IMG/VR virus record: IMGVR_UViG_3300029070_000006
Coordinates: 1-16,986 of that record
DNA from: a virus
Length of the DNA stretch: 16,986 nt
Strand: one strand, 5' to 3'
The notes beneath the pieces were generated by a model that saw only the letters and a program-made list of their open reading frames with translations, was not told where the DNA came from and ran no database searches. Shown here piece after piece: positions 7,949-16,986 of this stretch (its first letter is position 1; each line of letters starts with the position of its first letter). Made by a program: the position numbers and the translations under genes.

Positions 7949-7988
7949 AACATCTAAAAACGTCTAAGAACATCTAAAAACGTCTAAA
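7949..7988. repeat. 20-bp tandem direct repeat x2 (aacatctaaaaacgtctaaR) in the AT-rich terL-portal spacer
   Basis: catctaaaaacgtctaa occurs at 7951..7967 and at 7971..7987. The second copy overlaps the terL stop codon. Confidence 0.85.
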
Positions 7989-9435
7989 CGAAAATCTGCA
8001 AAGGCGCGGCCGGTTGAGCGTGCAGCGACGCGGTGACGGCGAGCTGCGCGGCCTCAAGCGCGTTTATGGCCTGTTCGCTGTTGCGCCTGGATAAGACCCA
8101 GCTGTCGGCGACCCACCGGCGCACCGCGACGGCGGCAGCGTCGTCCAGCGCCGGATCAGGCACGTGCAACACCTGGCGTTGCATGAGCCGGTCAAGCATG
8201 AGCACGCCGGCCGCGACTATCTCCGTGTTCCCGATATCCGACAACCGGTATTCAGGCGTGCCGTCCGCCGCGACCTCATGCAACCGGTCGGCCAACGGCG
8301 CGGACGGGCCGCGCCGGTCTATGGCTATCGGCGCGCCGCCATACCGTGATTGCAGGTCGGCCAGCCGTTCGGCCGCGCCGGCGGTGCCCGGCAGCACGTC
8401 CACGATCTGCACGACGGTGACGCCATCGCGCCGGCACGCGGCGGCTATCGCGGTCGATTCCGATTCCATGCCGACCGCGACGCCGAACGCGAGCGTGTCC
8501 AGGTCGAGCGCCGACAGGTCGAGCGGCGCGGTCTCGGTCTCCGTCCACAAGGCGGCGGGGTAGACGCGTTCGGTGCTGGACGTGTCACGGAGATTGCAGA
8601 ACGCGCGACGCCAGCCGGCCGGGTCGTCCGCGAACTGGTCGCGAAAGTCCTTGAGCTGCCGACGGTCGAACAGATAGCCGCAACCCGGATGCGCGCGGGC
8701 TACGGCGTCCAGGTCCTCGCTGTCCTTCGCGGGGTCAAGCCCCCAATCGAAGAACGCCCAACGTTTCGGGATGTCGCCGGCACGGCACCGGTCAAGCAGC
8801 GCGTTGTAATACTCGCTTTCAGCCGTGCCCTCCGTGCTCGTGATCCACAATTGCGGACGGACGCCCGTGGCCCTCATGCGCGTGGTCGTCGTCGGGATGA
8901 AGCCGTCAAGAATCTGCTTGGCCTGGAGCGCCGACAGCGCCCACACCTCGTCAAGGTTGATGAAATCGCCTTGGAAACCATGGCCGGCGCTCTCGGTCAT
9001 GCTTCCCGGCCGCAACGTGCTGCCGTTGACGAGCGGCAACGCCATGCTGCCGTTCGACATGCGCGGGTTCCCGTCGATCAGCGCCGACAGGGGAGAACGC
9101 ACCACGCTTTTGATGAGCTTGCGGAACTGCTCGTTGCTGTCCTTGCCGGTCTGCGCCAGATACCACACTTCGCGGTCGGGCCCAAGCAGCGCGTTGCGCA
9201 ACTGCTCGGCCTTGCTGATGGTCGTCTTGCCGGCCTGGCGTTGCACTGACACAATCACACGGTCGTAGTAGTACGTGCCAGTTTCCGGGTCGATTTCACC
9301 GGCAACGTCCGCGACCTGCTGCTGCCACGGGATCAGCGGTTGACCCAACGCGGCGGAGATGCGCGCCACCTTGCCGCCGTCCGTCTCACGCGCGGGGTCG
9401 CGCGGGGTCGCGTGGCGCGCCGGTGCCGACCTCAC
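7984..9435 (-). CDS. terL: Terminase large subunit (483 aa; GTG start)
   Basis: Walker A QRQAGKTT, a downstream nuclease-type acidic region, and a GTGA overlap with terS. Confidence 0.85.
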   Translation of the reverse strand: MRSAPARHATPRDPARETDGGKVARISAALGQPLIPWQQQVADVAGEIDPETGTYYYDRVIVSVQRQAGKTTISKAEQLRNALLGPDREVWYLAQTGKDSNEQFRKLIKSVVRSPLSALIDGNPRMSNGSMALPLVNGSTLRPGSMTESAGHGFQGDFINLDEVWALSALQAKQILDGFIPTTTTRMRATGVRPQLWITSTEGTAESEYYNALLDRCRAGDIPKRWAFFDWGLDPAKDSEDLDAVARAHPGCGYLFDRRQLKDFRDQFADDPAGWRRAFCNLRDTSSTERVYPAALWTETETAPLDLSALDLDTLAFGVAVGMESESTAIAAACRRDGVTVVQIVDVLPGTAGAAERLADLQSRYGGAPIAIDRRGPSAPLADRLHEVAADGTPEYRLSDIGNTEIVAAGVLMLDRLMQRQVLHVPDPALDDAAAVAVRRWVADSWVLSRRNSEQAINALEAAQLAVTASLHAQPAAPLQIFV

Positions 9436-9909: not shown

Positions 9910-10635
9910 CTACCATCGCGGCCGCGCCGACGCCGCCGGCGACGAGCTCGGAGCATCGAGCAGGCGAAGCCGCGCCAGCCACGCGCGCCTGCGTTCCAGC
10001 AGGCCGTCAACACGCGACTGGGTGATGCCCAGGCGACGCCACCGCTTCAGCAGCTCCATGTCCTCACGGCCACGGCCCTGCTCGGCCATGCGCTGCCTCA
10101 GCTGCGCGTCGTCCATGTCCAGCACCACCACGTCATAGTTCAACGCCACCCACTCGGCCAGCATATCCGGGCTGTTACGCGACTGAGGCAACGCACGCAC
10201 CAGCCACACATGCCGGGCCGTGAGCATGCGTGACACACGACGGTACGCGCCACCCCACAGCACATCGGCCAATGCGTGAGCCTCGCTGCCGCCATCCACG
10301 CACGCGGCCGCCAACCGTGACGGGTCAATCACGATATCGCCCGGCGCCATGTGCTCACGCACATAATCGGTCTTGCCCACGCACGGCGGCCCTATCACGG
10401 CAGTGACCTGCGCGCCGAAGCCGTTCACGACACGATCTGCACGCAACGAGTTGCAATGCTTGCACGCCGGGCGAAGATTCGCCGGCATGGTCGGGCCGTG
10501 CAGACTGTACGGCTTCACATGGTCCATGGTCTGCGCGCCTTGGTGCGTGCAACCCGGCATGCCCAGCCAACAATCCGAACCGAACATGAGCAGCACCTGA
10601 GCGGCCATGCTCGGCGGCACCCTCTTACGCTTCAC
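9910..10635 (-). CDS. HNH endonuclease fused to a P-loop NTPase/kinase-like domain (241 aa from GTG; alternative ATG at 10608)
   Basis: HNH-type Cys pairs (Zn-finger-like) and catalytic motifs: CWLGMPGC...DHVKP...N..PACKHCN. Then Walker A GPPCVGKT and Walker B-like VVVLDMDD. GTGA overlap with the upstream gene. Confidence 0.7.
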   Translation of the reverse strand: MKRKRVPPSMAAQVLLMFGSDCWLGMPGCTHQGAQTMDHVKPYSLHGPTMPANLRPACKHCNSLRADRVVNGFGAQVTAVIGPPCVGKTDYVREHMAPGDIVIDPSRLAAACVDGGSEAHALADVLWGGAYRRVSRMLTARHVWLVRALPQSRNSPDMLAEWVALNYDVVVLDMDDAQLRQRMAEQGRGREDMELLKRWRRLGITQSRVDGLLERRRAWLARLRLLDAPSSSPAASARPRW

Positions 10636-10814
10636 TGCTGCCTCCCAAGCCACTTGTTGACATCGGCCACGCGATACACCACACGGCCCTCCAGCATCCG
10701 CCATTTCGGCCCCTTGCCCTGCTTGCGCCACATGTAGAGCGTCTGCCCGGACTTGCCTAGGAACTCGGCCAGCTCACGCGCGTACAGGAAACCACGGCCC
10801 ATCAGTGGCACCAC
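10632..10814 (-). CDS. Excisionase/AlpA-type HTH DNA-binding protein (56 aa from ATG 10802, or 60 aa from GTG 10814)
   Basis: YARELAEFLGKSGQTLYMWRKQGKGP...RVVYRVADVNKWL matches the HTH_17/excisionase pattern. The ATG at 10800..10802 overlaps the upstream TGA by 1 nt. Confidence 0.65.
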   Translation of the reverse strand: MVPLMGRGFLYARELAEFLGKSGQTLYMWRKQGKGPKWRMLEGRVVYRVADVNKWLGRQQ

Positions 10815-11727: not shown

Positions 11728-12293
11728 CGCGCCACCGCAGAATCCTCGCCCGGACCAGTCGAGCGATCTGACGAAGCTAGAGCTTGGAGTGCATTGGGTA
11801 TCATCTCCAACCCGTCTCCACCGGTGTCGATATACGCAATTCCCGATCTGGGGCATAGAACCAATGAAGTGCGGACCCTTTGAACGCCTGCGCAGATGGC
11901 ATAGGGACAGGCTGGGTCATCGCAGGTTCCATGCTCTCGACAGAAAACGGGCTTCAGAACAGAGAAGACTCCTGAGTTAGGAACAATCCGATACGTCCCG
12001 TCCGAAAAAACCTCAAAAGCGTCGTCGGAATCAGCCACGCCGTCGGAATCCTTACGACGAGTCCAATCATCCTTGATTTGCGGAGCAAAGCCGAACTGTG
12101 TTCTTAACTCCCAATCGTGAACGATCTTGTGGTCGTAGGGAAGCCCCACATGCTTGCGCGAGGACTCCAAAGCGTAACGACTACGCTCCACGGCCCCAGC
12201 GGCCTCGATTCGTGCCATGCGGGACCAGTAAAGCGCGGCGCAGGAAATAACCAAGGACGCAAAAGAAACACCCAACGAAACGAAGCCAAACAT
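11679..12293 (-). CDS. Hypothetical membrane-anchored protein (204 aa), low-GC insert
   Basis: N-terminal TM segment FGFVSLGVSFASLVISCAALYW and a Cys-containing C-terminal domain. The ATG overlaps the Cro-like TGA by 1 nt. The last ~16 codons overlap the 57-aa ORF, so the end is uncertain. Confidence 0.5.
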   Translation of the reverse strand: MFGFVSLGVSFASLVISCAALYWSRMARIEAAGAVERSRYALESSRKHVGLPYDHKIVHDWELRTQFGFAPQIKDDWTRRKDSDGVADSDDAFEVFSDGTYRIVPNSGVFSVLKPVFCREHGTCDDPACPYAICAGVQRVRTSLVLCPRSGIAYIDTGGDGLEMIPNALQALASSDRSTGPGEDSAVARCMSSPSVAPLRGTWS

Positions 12294-12499
12294 CACAACA
12301 CCTCCAAGGGCTCGCGGCCAAGCACGAGATCAGTGGAAACGTCGAAAAAGTCGGCTATGCGCGACACATCACGCAACGTGAAATTTGAGCGGCCATGGAA
12401 TTTGTCGCTGATGGCCTGCTCGGAGACGCCTAGCTCATGCGCCAGATCGCGCTGTGTGACGTGATTGTCTCTCATGAGTTTTCTTATCTGACTAATCAT
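12293..12499 (-). CDS. Cro-like XRE-family HTH regulator (68 aa)
   Basis: VTQRDLAHELGVSEQAISDKFHGRSNFTLRDVSRIADFF is a classic XRE HTH. It is divergent from the second HTH gene. Confidence 0.75.
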   Translation of the reverse strand: MISQIRKLMRDNHVTQRDLAHELGVSEQAISDKFHGRSNFTLRDVSRIADFFDVSTDLVLGREPLEVL

Positions 12500-12598
12500 T
12501 TAAAAACTTTCAGACTAAAGATTTGATGAAGTTCTAGACCAAAGATTAACCATATGACGTAGCCAACACGCCGAGTACTACGCTAAAACCGTAGTAAA
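12500..12598. promoter_or_regulatory. AT-rich divergent switch region with candidate operators
   Basis: Direct repeat agacYaaagatt at 12512..12523 and 12536..12547. Inverted repeat tactacg/cgtagta at 12576..12582/12590..12596. A TAAAAT -10-like hexamer at 12595..12600 lies 7 nt before ATG 12608, which could allow a leaderless start. Confidence 0.4.
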
Positions 12599-13024
12599 AT
12601 GAATTTCATGACAATGCTAGATATTCAGCCGAGCGCTACATTGCGCAGGCAGGACGTTGTTGCGATGAATACGAACATGATCTTGTCCAACAGCGGTTTA
12701 ATGAAGAAGGACCTTGCTAAGGCAATGGGACTCTCGCCGCAATCGATGGCGTCGAGGCTTCAGAGCAAGGCCGATTGGACCATTGACGAAACTTGCGCGG
12801 CGGCCGATTTCTTCGGCGTCCCGTTGATGGCTTTGCTGGATGAGAACTTAACGCCAGCAAAAGCCATGGAATATATAAAAAACCGCCGTTCCGATAATGG
12901 GAACGGCGGTCAAGTGGTAGCGGGGCATGGATTTGAACCATGGACCTCTGGTAACGTTGTTGCCCAGAGGTCCACGGTTCAAATCCATGAAGCCCGATTA
13001 TTTGATTTTATCCTAGCGGCGTAA
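12599..13024 (+). CDS. CI-like XRE-family HTH repressor candidate (up to 141 aa; start uncertain: 12599, 12608 or 12614). Its C-terminus reads through the attP core and ends ...FILAA.
   Basis: HTH MKKDLAKAMGLSPQSMASRLQSKADWTIDETCAAADFF. The ORF stays open through the tRNA-like segment to TAA 13022..13024, 18 nt before the integrase ORF. Confidence 0.65.
   Translation: MNFMTMLDIQPSATLRRQDVVAMNTNMILSNSGLMKKDLAKAMGLSPQSMASRLQSKADWTIDETCAAADFFGVPLMALLDENLTPAKAMEYIKNRRSDNGNGGQVVAGHGFEPWTSGNVVAQRSTVQIHEARLFDFILAA
12877..12910 (-). terminator. Intrinsic terminator on the minus strand, immediately 3-prime of the tRNA fragment
   Basis: An 11-bp stem accgccgttcc (12882..12892) with ggaacggcggt (12900..12910) and loop gataatg. 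On the minus strand it is followed by TTTTTT (12877..12882). Confidence 0.65.
12915..12951 (-). other. tRNA 3-prime-end fragment (variable loop, T-arm, acceptor strand, CCA): candidate attP core
   Basis: The minus strand reads CCAGAGGTC-CATGG-TTCAAAT-CCATG-CCCCGCT-A-CCA. That gives a perfect 5-bp T stem, a canonical T loop, a 7-nt acceptor strand, the discriminator and CCA. No D-arm or anticodon arm is present, so it is not a complete gene. Confidence 0.7.
12926..12989. repeat. 26-bp inverted repeat (25/26) with a 12-nt spacer. The right arm is a degenerate inverted copy of the tRNA fragment.
   Basis: catggatttgaaccatggacctctgg (12926..12951), spacer taacgttgttgc, then ccagaggtccacggttcaaatccatg (12964..12989). 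Confidence 0.85.
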
Positions 13025-13042
13025 TGCCGCCGGCCGCCAAGG

Positions 13043-13882
13043 ATGCCGGCCGTGAGTATGCACAAAAAGCTGCCCCCTGCTCAGTGGCGGGACGAAATCA
13101 CCCTATGGCTCGAATCGCTCACGGCGGCGGGTCTCAGTCAGGACACGATCAACACGCGGCGGTGCAAGATAGGGCACGCGGCGCGGTGCCTGGATAAATC
13201 GCCCTATGACGTGACGTCAGAGGATCTAGTGCATTGGACGGCCTCGCAGTCCTGGAAGGCGGAGACGCGCAAGGGCTATCGGAATACGCTCGTCGGTTTT
13301 TTCCGGTGGCTGCATGCCACGGGCCGGCGCGCGGACGATCCGGCGGTCGCGCTGCCGAAGGTGCGCAAGACGCGGCCGCATCCCCGCCCGTGCCCCGACG
13401 CGCACATATACGCCGCCATGTGCGCCGCGAACGATGTGGAACGGCTCATGCTGCGCCTTGGTGCCGAAGCCGGGTTGAGACTGTCCGAAATCGCGGCCGT
13501 CCACTCGCGCGACGTGCTGGAAGGCGACGCCGGCCCGTCGCTGATAGTGCGGGGCAAGGGCGACAAACAGCGCATAGTGCCCATAAGCGAAGACCTGGCG
13601 AAGCGGATAACGGCCGCGCCCGGTTGGCTGTTCCCCGGCCGGTGGCGGGGACACGTCGAAAAATCGTATGTGTCCCGCCACCTCACACGGCTGCTGCCGG
13701 ACGGTTGGGGGCCGCACTCGCTGCGCCACCGGTACGCCACGCGCATGTACGAGACCACGCACGATCTGCTGCTGGTCTCGAAGCTGCTGGGACATAGCAG
13801 CGTGGAGACCACGCAAATCTACGTGGCGATGCCGGATAGCCGGCTGCGCGTCGGCCTGGACGCGGTGACGTTGGCCGGCTAG
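13043..13882 (+). CDS. int: Tyrosine recombinase/integrase, short XerC/D-like (279 aa; alternative starts GTG 13052, ATG 13058)
   Basis: Candidate catalytic residues: GLRLSE (R), KGDKQR (K), HSLRHRYAT (H-x-x-R), LGHSSVETTQIYV (H...Y). There is a SAM-like core-binding N-terminus but no obvious arm-binding domain. Confidence 0.85.
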   Translation: MPAVSMHKKLPPAQWRDEITLWLESLTAAGLSQDTINTRRCKIGHAARCLDKSPYDVTSEDLVHWTASQSWKAETRKGYRNTLVGFFRWLHATGRRADDPAVALPKVRKTRPHPRPCPDAHIYAAMCAANDVERLMLRLGAEAGLRLSEIAAVHSRDVLEGDAGPSLIVRGKGDKQRIVPISEDLAKRITAAPGWLFPGRWRGHVEKSYVSRHLTRLLPDGWGPHSLRHRYATRMYETTHDLLLVSKLLGHSSVETTQIYVAMPDSRLRVGLDAVTLAG

Positions 13883-15901: not shown

Positions 15902-16986
15902 GGTTCCTCCGTGATGGTGGTTGGTTGCTGATAGGTGTGGACGAGGGATAGTTCGGCGAGGGTGAGTGCGCATTGACTCCACGTGGCGGGCCATGCGCCC
16001 ATGCTTGCCCAGGTGGTCGCGGTCGCGGCGGCTACTGGTAGAGGCCATAATGTGACCTCGTTGCGTAGGTGGGGTTTGCCGGCAGACCATTGATAGGTAA
16101 GGGTGCCGCCGATGCTGGCCCACACGCCGCCCGCCGACGGTTTTGCGTCGTCTCCGGTGAGCCGTGAGGTGATGTCTCCTTGGATGACGAGCGGTCCGCT
16201 GCTGGCGGTGAGGTAGAGGCGTGCGTGTATGGCGGGGTCGAGCCGCCGGCTGTCGAACACGATGGTGTCCGAGCGCAGTCGCCGGTCCATCGCGACGAGC
16301 AGTTGGGCGAATGTCTCCCGCTCGTCGGACGATGGCGTCCACACGGTGCCGGAGGCCCTGCCCCATACGCCCTCGGACGTGTCGGCGGAGACCACGTCCG
16401 ATTCCACGGTGATGCTGGATTGGGTGATGGTCAGGTTGGCCGGCAGCAGGCCAAGGGCGGTGAGCTCGGTCTCATGCTCGTCGAATTCCAGTGCGCCGTC
16501 GTTGGATTTCGCGTTTTTGCCCTGGATGGTGAATTGGGTGACTGGTTCGGGGATGACGATGGTCTGCTCGTCGTCGGTGATGATGTCGGTGGCGTCGAGG
16601 CCGTCCAGCGTCTCTCCGGTCCAATCGGTCACGGTGAGTCGGGCTGTGTCGTCGATGCCGATGCTTGCGGGAGCGCCGAACGGCATGTAGTCGATGCGAC
16701 TCGCGTCACGGTCGGGGTATTCGTACCATATCGGCCACATTCTGGAGTGAGCGTAGGTGCGGTGGAGCAGGTCGAGTTGCGATGGACAATCGTCGGTCCG
16801 GTAGGGTGCCACGGATGCGGTGGTGTCGAGGCCGTTGACGTTGGCCTGTGGCGCGTCCGCCTCCTTGGCGCGTCGGTTGAGCTCCGTCAGCCGTTCTGCT
16901 GTGGTGCCGACCCAGTGCAGGCCCGTGTAACGTGCATCGGATGATACGGGCCCTTGTTTCTGCAATCTTTTCCACAGGATCATGCG
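15898..16986 (-). CDS. Minor tail protein in the Dit position, C-terminal part (continues from 1..540 across the junction)
   Basis: Same frame as 1..540 through the 99-nt overlap. The apparent ATG at 16983 is internal (equivalent to position 96). Confidence 0.7.
   Translation of the reverse strand, partial: RMILWKRLQKQGPVSSDARYTGLHWVGTTAERLTELNRRAKEADAPQANVNGLDTTASVAPYRTDDCPSQLDLLHRTYAHSRMWPIWYEYPDRDASRIDYMPFGAPASIGIDDTARLTVTDWTGETLDGLDATDIITDDEQTIVIPEPVTQFTIQGKNAKSNDGALEFDEHETELTALGLLPANLTITQSSITVESDVVSADTSEGVWGRASGTVWTPSSDERETFAQLLVAMDRRLRSDTIVFDSRRLDPAIHARLYLTASSGPLVIQGDITSRLTGDDAKPSAGGVWASIGGTLTYQWSAGKPHLRNEVTLWPLPVAAATATTWASMGAWPATWSQCALTLAELSLVHTYQQPTTITEEP
16888..16986. repeat. Terminal overlap, copy 2 (identical to 1..99)
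   Basis: Same 99-nt string as 1..99. Confidence 0.95.

Follow-up and report, generated by a model that had tools for sequence, protein, structure and literature searches.

Integration-dependent immunity is defined by a phage attachment site (attP) that lies inside the repressor gene (rep), a tagged viral form of the repressor and the absence of any recombination directionality factor (RDF) (PMC3694055, PMC4557955). In mycobacteriophage BPs the repressor is shortened from 136 aa in the viral form to 103 aa in the prophage form (PMC3694055, PMC4557955). Pope et al. 2017 reported integration-dependent immunity in about half of the Gordonia phages with an identifiable attP core, and the ~17-kb siphoviral phages of Gordonia Cluster CW (Jeanie, McGonagall, GMA5 and GRU3) are integration-dependent with a 37-bp core in a tRNA gene (PMC5559632). 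The ~18-kb Bifidobacterium breve prophages Bb423phi2 and 689b-1 described by Mavrich et al. 2018 (Sci Rep 8:12772; PMC6109161, where Lunt and Hatfull 2016 is also cited) reside at tRNA-Met beside metA, with the integrase gene (int) at the attL junction and rep at the attR junction. Their reconstructed viral repressor has 18 additional C-terminal residues with an ssrA-like tag, and the authors likened the prophages to integration-dependent immunity systems and to Cluster CW (PMC6109161), whose phages are the sole non-bifidobacterial ones reported to share phamilies with the tRNA-Met bifidoprophages (PMC6109161, PMC5559632). Here we analyse a viral DNA stretch of 16,986 nucleotides, IMG/VR record IMGVR_UViG_3300029070_000006 (the window), and in particular its three-gene cro/rep/int cassette, which occupies 1.6 kb in total (12293-13882). 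With a probability of roughly 0.78 for the explanation as a whole, we interpret the window as the excised circular genome, 16.9 kb in size, of a temperate siphovirus that infects human-gut Bifidobacterium, and the cassette as being of the integration-dependent immunity type.

The window resembles the group of Bb423phi2, 689b-1 and Bl-1 in its tRNA-Met target next to metA, its genome size, its gene order and the placement of its attachment sites, and the common core is identical to that of Bb423phi2 and 689b-1 (TGGTAGCGGGGCATGGATTTGAACC[A/T]TGGACCTCTGG.., Table 3 in PMC6109161). It differs from them in being an observed circular viral form, theirs being an in-silico reconstruction, and in a viral-form repressor that exceeds the prophage form by 22 residues instead of 18, read in another frame through an inverted repeat in attP. 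The spacer of that repeat measures 12 nt against 3-4 nt in the B. breve type, and the nearest relatives are found in B. longum and B. adolescentis rather than B. breve. Compared with Cluster CW the target is tRNA-Met and not tRNA-Lys and the host genus differs; megablast against the phage collection described below detected no nucleotide similarity to Cluster CW. A preliminary description of the locus held that it would extend the mechanism beyond mycobacteriophages. This does not stand, because the window joins an already described phage group: the mechanism was predicted before for Bb423phi2 and 689b-1 (PMC6109161) and for the 17-kb Cluster CW phages (PMC5559632). Beyond the literature compared there is only an attL-specific base change and the palindromic nature of attP. 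The parts of the cassette are as follows.

12293..12499, minus strand: Cro-like helix-turn-helix (HTH) gene, 68 aa (PF01381 HTH_3), first gene of the leftward lytic operon and divergent from rep
12500..12598, no strand: rep-cro control region, 99 bp, with repeats that are candidate operators
12599..13024, plus strand: rep, the open reading frame (ORF) of the 141-aa viral-form repressor (phrog_4583 transcriptional repressor, E 1.7e-10); the HTH lies at about residues 20-90, the core encodes residues 106-118, and the 23-aa tail (119-141) ends ILAA
12882..12910, minus strand: intrinsic terminator hairpin, a 14-bp stem followed by TTTTTT (inverted repeat and terminator call)
12915..12951, minus strand: attP common core, 37 nt, the 3' end of tRNA-Met(CAT) (tRNA identity and att junctions)
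12940, no strand: polymorphic core base in the T-stem, third base of the Pro codon CCA (synonymous), with its mirror position at 12975
12964..12989, plus strand: right arm of the 26-nt inverted repeat, an inverted core copy, 96% complementary to 12926-12951
13013..13024, plus strand: terminal L-A-A codons CTA GCG GCG and the TAA stop, an ssrA-like C-terminus
13043..13882, plus strand: int, a simple arm-less tyrosine recombinase of 279 aa (PF00589, E 1.5e-20; phrog_1 integrase), found at attL once integrated

The preliminary description had given a 141-aa repressor-like ORF with the C-terminus ARLFDFILAA, a Cro-like gene divergent from it on the minus strand, an 18-nt gap to int, and a tRNA-derived core at 12915..12951 coding for repressor residues 106-118 (VVAGHGFEPWTSG). 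We find this layout as described, with the repressor ORF at 12599-13024 on the plus strand, the int ATG at 13043 and the end of int at 13882, and the core is identical in 37/37 positions to Bifidobacterium tRNA-Met(CAT) genes. It is likewise identical to the tRNA-Met(CAT) gene in the locus from a B. breve genome (L001) that served as stand-in for Bb423phi2 and 689b-1 in our sequence comparisons, and to 118/118 tRNA-Met genes from a pattern scan, almost all from Bifidobacteriaceae, over the pattern used. The reverse complement of 12915-12951, CCAGAGGTCCATGGTTCAAATCCATGCCCCGCTACCA, comprises the 3' strand of the anticodon stem, the variable loop, the T arm, the acceptor strand, the discriminator base and CCA. 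ARAGORN called no tRNA in 12599-13882, as the core is a 3' fragment only. Directly after the CCA on the minus strand, and within the rep coding sequence (KNRRSDNGNGGQ), lies the hairpin at 12882-12910, which was called as a terminator with 12 pairs followed by TTTTTATATAT. The bacterial arms of host sites have a hairpin of their own at the equivalent position, and the phage hairpin is a replacement terminator for the host tRNA-Met rebuilt after integration. The preliminary description had mentioned neither this hairpin nor the inverted core copy at 12964-12989 nor the terminal repeat of the window.

Public assemblies contain integrated copies of what is essentially this phage, with rep reduced to residues 1-118 and ending ...TSGL*. 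Three short contigs from metagenomes (L008, L009 and L011) show complete identity with the window between the control region and 12951 and continue with GTTATGAGCCCAGCGAGC..., which is the tRNA-Met body, placing the crossover within the rep ORF as had been proposed. The predicted change of the C-terminus was also seen. At attR the antisense of the anticodon loop supplies TTA TGA and rep is hence cut to 119 aa: the 23 residues NVVAQ...FILAA are exchanged for a single Leu, followed by a TGA stop that overlaps the CAT anticodon in antisense. A protein search gave 67 repressor homologues, which split into a tailed and a truncated class. The truncated class ends ...GHGFEPWTSGL*, and one of its sequences (P0001, with 82 member sequences) is 100% identical to residues 1-118 and adds the Leu. 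The ...SGL* form was present in 39/45 IMG/VR relatives and also in L001, L002 and L008-L011. In the B. breve locus L001, rep ends ACC TCT GGG TTA TGA inside tRNA-Met (10311-10387, minus strand), followed downstream by metA (HTS gene) and the ATP synthase operon; other attR loci are alike.

The attL junctions recovered carry the exact window integrase. Their order is host DNA with its own tRNA terminator, the core, the window spacer TAACGTTGTTGC, the right arm, the tail remnant and int. The expectation that integration would split int from the rep promoter was thus confirmed, as int at attL lies beside host DNA at ~17 kb from rep. The host flanks at attL are of two kinds, and by exact look-ups the neighbouring host proteins are those of B. 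adolescentis and B. longum. Further, ~30 rep-attP-int junctions were found in independent assemblies, many of them on contigs of about genome length (16-17 kb). These junctions show recombination by the arm-less integrase between the 37-bp core and the 3' half of the tRNA-Met gene beside metA. The host tRNA-Met is restored at attR, its 5' part coming from the host and its 3' part and terminator from the phage, and the 23-aa tail, the inverted repeat and int are relocated to attL.

Some integrated loci deviate from this picture. At 15 loci (including L003, L006, L004/L005, L034 and L231-L233) the repressor-side phage arm and the core run into GTTATGAG or GTTAGTGA, after which comes non-tRNA DNA (ACCACC...), which in L006 belongs to another phage-like element. 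This looks like polylysogeny, with a second element at the same tRNA-Met whose putative core reaches the anticodon loop. Where the junction has GTTATGAG, the repressor of the first phage retains its SGL* end; the GTTAGTGA variant (L004 and L005) lacks the stop, and the repressor extends to 124 aa (P0007). An ENA contig of 279,743 nt (L156, 122375-125719) has an intact viral-form repressor, attP and int mid-contig, which suggests tandem or heterologous double prophages with an internal repressor that retains the tag. In a 16,834-nt contig (L007, repressor P0002) TGC replaces TGA in the antisense anticodon loop, giving a read-through repressor of 159 aa; this corresponds to U33-to-G in the tRNA and may reflect an error in sequencing or damage to this copy of the tRNA.

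The tailed class continues past TSG with a tail of 19-23 aa, and every tailed homologue ends L-A-A or L-T-A. Three attP families were distinguished.

Window type: spacer of 12 nt, right arm QRSTVQIH, tail end ILAA, 96 nt from GGA to stop
Second family: spacer of 5 nt, right arm RGPRFKSM, tail end ILTA or ILAA, 93 nt from GGA to stop
Third family (B. breve type): spacer of 3-4 nt, right arm RGPRSKPM, tail end SLAA, 84 nt from GGA to stop

That the frame stays open for 23 codons past the core is by itself not significant (P ~0.28), and the chance of an L-[AT]-A end is ~0.0024 per random tail. As this ending recurs in tails of differing sequence and frame, it is not a product of chance. Insertions and deletions in the attP spacer are always compensated such that the frame still reaches L-[AT]-A. 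One homologue (L223) differs from the window in 9 tail residues and the stop codon and keeps ILAA, and tails without similarity to the attP families end alike (...EDYVLAA in P0061, ...IFALAA in P0019 and ...AWILTA in P0022). The frame of the tail is not automatic, because the hybrid junctions L185/P0062, P0005 and P0011, which join the 12-nt spacer family to downstream DNA of another family, are out of frame, have lost the tag and have untagged tails (...GASELIQAHFNRLKPGVHDGS); these hybrids are probably recombinants or junctions between different prophages. At the level of sequence, then, the conserved ssrA-like end is carried by the viral form alone. A look at tmRNA-integrated prophages for the native Bifidobacterium tag yielded one transfer-messenger RNA (tmRNA), in L265 (7110-7482, minus strand); at its 3' end it is the same as the tmRNA att core published for B. 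breve, and its tag is ANDNFVPAFAAAA, ending ...AFAAAA.

The start of rep at or near 12599 is supported by two observations: the residues before Met23 (RRQDVVAMN) are kept as protein in homologues without Met at that position, and the context of the ATG is preserved in a relative with a 76% identical repressor. Gene callers often choose Met23 as start, which gives a viral form of 119 aa, and this accounts for the exact look-up of the 141-aa protein returning no match. With the B. breve type (P0034, L001) the repressor shares only ~50% identity. The divergent Cro-like ORF matches HTH_3 (PF01381, E 2.9e-10) as well as PHROG transcriptional regulator families, and its counterpart in the B. breve prophage L001 is 64% identical. 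Between the two genes the control region holds two direct repeats of TTYNAGACYAAAGATT (12508-12523 and 12532-12547) and a small inverted repeat, TACTACG/CGTAGTA (12576-12582 and 12590-12596). In the window the TTYNAGACYAAAGATT motif is confined to the control region, with 0.01 matches expected by chance, and we regard the two copies as candidate operators. The control region is identical in circular and integrated copies and partly conserved in the relative with 76% repressor identity. A scan of 12200-13200 for sigma-70 consensus promoters gave no site, including none between rep and int.

The preliminary description had called the integrase XerC/D-sized; its best match among solved structures was 5VFZ 'Gp33' (E 2.3e-22), followed by XerC, XerD and XerA. 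We take 5VFZ to be the integrase of Brujita, an integration-dependent mycobacteriophage; this enzyme is simple, arm-less and directionless. The catalytic domain found with Pfam spans residues 124-263, and there is a weak SAM-like core-binding match at residues 22-90; on its protein domains the window Int is simple, two-domain and arm-less with no extra N-terminal domain. The exact 279-aa Int is listed in 4348 blocks of an assembly index, and the six places read among these had B. longum-type or B. adolescentis-type flanks. A 100% identical Int across both host types argues for recent horizontal spread. The repressors and structural genes beside identical Ints differ between prophages, and the distribution of Int points to probable mosaicism and a broad host range within Bifidobacterium.

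The left arm of the inverted repeat in attP (12926-12951) is the inner 26 nt of the core, and the two arms have one mismatch and are separated by the 12-nt spacer. The right arm is a slightly disabled copy of the core T arm and variable region, with CCACGG instead of CCATGG at 12975, and in the viral-form tail it is translated as QRSTVQIH. It was found in all attP families. The RNA of 12870-13045 is predicted to fold at -96.3 kcal/mol (z = -10.7), with the tail codons (12926-13010) inside a very stable predicted hairpin that is followed by AUUAUUUGAUUUUAU before the stop codon. We speculate that early termination at this hairpin would yield a non-stop rep mRNA and genuine tmRNA tagging, and that the large hairpin and U-rich tract may attenuate transcription into int, which would be complementary to the mechanism proposed below. 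Integrase-driven inversion between the repeat arms was ruled out, as the spacer was never seen inverted, and a single-strand hairpin (CTX-like) integration was ruled out since both arms remain together at attL.

Within the core, the base at 12940 depends on the type of site. It was A in 102/102 bacterial attachment sites (attB), in 45/45 attR sites and in 28/30 attP junctions (G in 2/30), and it was A in 2/55 and G or T in 53/55 attL junctions (Fisher p = 7.7e-18), the split of junctions into attL and attP coming partly from by-eye inspection of the left flanks. The G or T at attL pairs with the right arm, G opposite C and T opposite A, even within one attP family, and the changed base completes the 26-nt inverted repeat (L012-L017 and L136-L213). 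The published Bb423phi2 and 689b-1 sites have T at attL and A at attR at the matching position, given without comment (Table 3 in PMC6109161). As conservative recombination of two A parents cannot yield G or T, the attL base was altered after integration or derives from rare variants. We ruled out that contigs with an A-type attP are chimeras assembled from attR and attL: only 11-12 nt separate the polymorphic base from the phage spacer, the joining k-mers must therefore be real reads, and the A-type attP turns up again on contigs of numerous separate samples among ENA, JGI and Logan assemblies.

From this pattern we infer that strand exchange takes place to the right of 12940, within the final 11 bp (12941-12951) of the core. 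On the simplest reading, 12940 would travel with the phage or the bacterial flank and be held at A wherever it is part of the tRNA, and the attL copy would be free, a template switch in the quasipalindrome turning it into the full complement of the right arm. Alternatively, the heterology of attL and attR at 12940 may hinder excision, which would fit the reported lack of Bb423phi2 excision. Taken one step further, the inverted T-arm duplication would rewrite 12940 at attL after integration, and the resulting heterology would turn a reversible integrase switch into a one-way latch. We consider this idea doubtful, and it depends on 12940 lying in or next to the region of strand exchange. If true, a block of excision would in an integration-dependent system also block the loss of immunity, and it would explain both why intact-looking 17-kb prophages are common yet 'cryptic' and why free genomes keep the tRNA-type base.

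The window has an identical 99-nt direct repeat at both ends (1-99 and 16888-16986), hence it is a circular (or concatemeric) assembly, and its unique sequence amounts to 16,887 bp. It encodes tape-measure, portal, large terminase and HNH proteins, a protease-capsid fusion, a lysin and a holin, and the structural, lysis and integration genes are all intact. The nearest integrated relative is a B. longum prophage (L016), with window protein identities of up to 100%, and the B. breve prophage L001 has counterparts of 12 window proteins, in unchanged order and with 29-73% identity. When the whole window was compared with 50,697 phage records by megablast, the only match, of 346 bp, was to the tape-measure gene of an Arthrobacter phage; as judged by this search, a close cultured relative is absent from that collection. 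One further gene of the lytic operon bears on the switch.

10632..10814, minus strand: HTH_17 protein, 60 aa (PF12728, E 3e-9), a possible excisionase (RDF)

This ORF also matches phrog_66 'excisionase and transcriptional regulator' (E 8e-10) and has a counterpart in L001. An HNH-domain protein (9910-10731, minus strand), which also matches phrog_4581 (terminase small subunit, E 7e-21), shares ~100 nt with the 3' end of the HTH_17 ORF upstream of it. ARAGORN further called a 95-nt tRNA-Gly(GCC) at 8077-8171 (minus strand) inside the large terminase ORF (7984-9435); being over-long and within a coding region, it is probably a false positive.

The preliminary description had compared the locus with BPs and Brujita, and the comparison holds in that attP lies in rep, the repressor is truncated, int is relocated and the tag-like end is on the viral form only. 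As in BPs, Brujita and Charlie (Broussard et al. 2013), we find a compact int-rep-cro cassette, about 2 kb by the definition of the system and 1.6 kb here, with rep and int adjacent and in one direction, attP inside rep, a divergent cro and an arm-less integrase, and, as in BPs, a prophage repressor that is truncated at the C-terminus (here from 141 to 119 aa) and a viral form with an ssrA-like end. Unlike those systems, the present one belongs to a different branch of the host phylum, shows no detectable repressor homology to them, has an Int without a conserved tag and a possible RDF-like gene, has its attP embedded in an inverted 26-nt duplicate of the tRNA's T arm, and takes the stop of the prophage form from the antisense anticodon loop. 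By analogy, the 141-aa viral form would be made after infection and its C-terminal ...ILAA would be recognised by ClpXP-type proteases, and stable immunity would arise only if Int integrates the genome. The tail-less 119-aa form would then be stable and would repress the divergent lytic promoter, probably via the two repeats of the control region. Parting int from the rep promoter would lower Int and stabilise the prophage, and the frequency of lysogeny would be set by the levels of Int.

Several points weigh against this reading. Tag-dependent proteolysis, activity of the short form and transcription of int from the rep promoter would all follow the mycobacteriophage model, and for the whole bifidophage group the functional steps are presumed on the same analogy. 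The sole tmRNA with a B. breve-type 3' end (L265, host putative) adds AFAAAA and not LAA, so the term 'ssrA-like' refers to the general C-terminal motif of ClpX and not to identity with the native tag. Translation of the full-length tail is not guaranteed, given the structured region of -96 kcal/mol and the U-rich stretch before the stop. The window Int ends ...AVTLAG and related Ints end RLDV, RLI, RLAV, RLT and LLSA; among the Int C-termini compared there is no conserved AA end or tag, unlike what is reported for BPs Int. The HTH_17 ORF is possibly an excisionase, or another DNA-binding protein, and the canonical cassette has no RDF. Finally, Bb423phi2 was neither excised nor induced by mitomycin C (PMC6109161).

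Conventional immunity would require that both repressor forms are equal, that the overlap with attP results from compactness, and that LAA is a by-product of DNA conserved for the binding or expression of Int. The tail does mostly encode the inverted repeat, which may be conserved as DNA for its own reasons, the last codons (TTAGCGGCG or CTAGCGGCG) are common to two attP families and could be homologous and not convergent, and in BPs both repressor forms bind DNA similarly (PMC4557955). Yet the spacers of 12, 5 and 3-4 nt are always compensated to L-[AT]-A, the unrelated tails P0061, P0019 and P0022 share the ending, and L223 keeps ILAA despite its 9 changes. We therefore find this explanation improbable. 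The hairpin could instead act as the switch at the RNA level, as a terminator or attenuator on a rep-int transcript that limits int and may end transcripts ahead of the rep stop, with viral rep then tagged by tmRNA on non-stop mRNA in place of its encoded LAA and the hairpin removed from rep on integration. This draws on the predicted -96.3 kcal/mol (z = -10.7) and the AUUAUUUGAUUUUAU upstream of the stop at 13022, on the presence of the hairpin in all attP families and on the lack of a promoter-like site between rep and int. The U tract is however interrupted and set apart from the stem, the constant L-[AT]-A end is left unexplained, and integration would still need expression of int across the hairpin; there was also no plus-strand terminator call, from a scan whose limits (20 stem pairs, loop of 3-8 nt) would miss a hairpin of 26 pairs and a 12-nt loop. 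Such a switch seems to us quite improbable.

It might also be argued that the ~17-kb units are decayed or domesticated elements, cryptic prophages in which the layout is a relic without a working decision. Bl-1 and 689b-1 were first classed as cryptic (PMC6109161), the failure of Bb423phi2 to excise or respond to mitomycin C would suit a relic, and attL and attR differ at 12940 in 53/55 prophages. Mycobacteriophages with integration-dependent immunity are, on the other hand, likewise insensitive to mitomycin C (PMC6109161). Moreover the window is circular, ~30 rep-attP-int junctions occur in independent assemblies, the genes are intact, and the identity of Int across host types implies recent horizontal spread, hence we hold decay to be very improbable.

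An integration-dependent switch in this phage adds little conceptually, in that the prediction made in 2018 from prophages is confirmed with directly observed circular and integrated forms. The attL-specific base offers a cheap sequence marker that maps the crossover and tells long-resident from fresh integrations. The 1.6-kb cassette with its 37-bp core represents a ready-made, arm-less, single-protein integration system with a tRNA-Met site conserved across Bifidobacteriaceae, and the repressor pair of 141 and 119 aa lends itself naturally to tests of the biology of ClpXP tags in a genus with few genetic tools. On this reading, a circuit in which the integrase is the decision maker would be widespread in the bifidobacteria that are dominant in the human gut.

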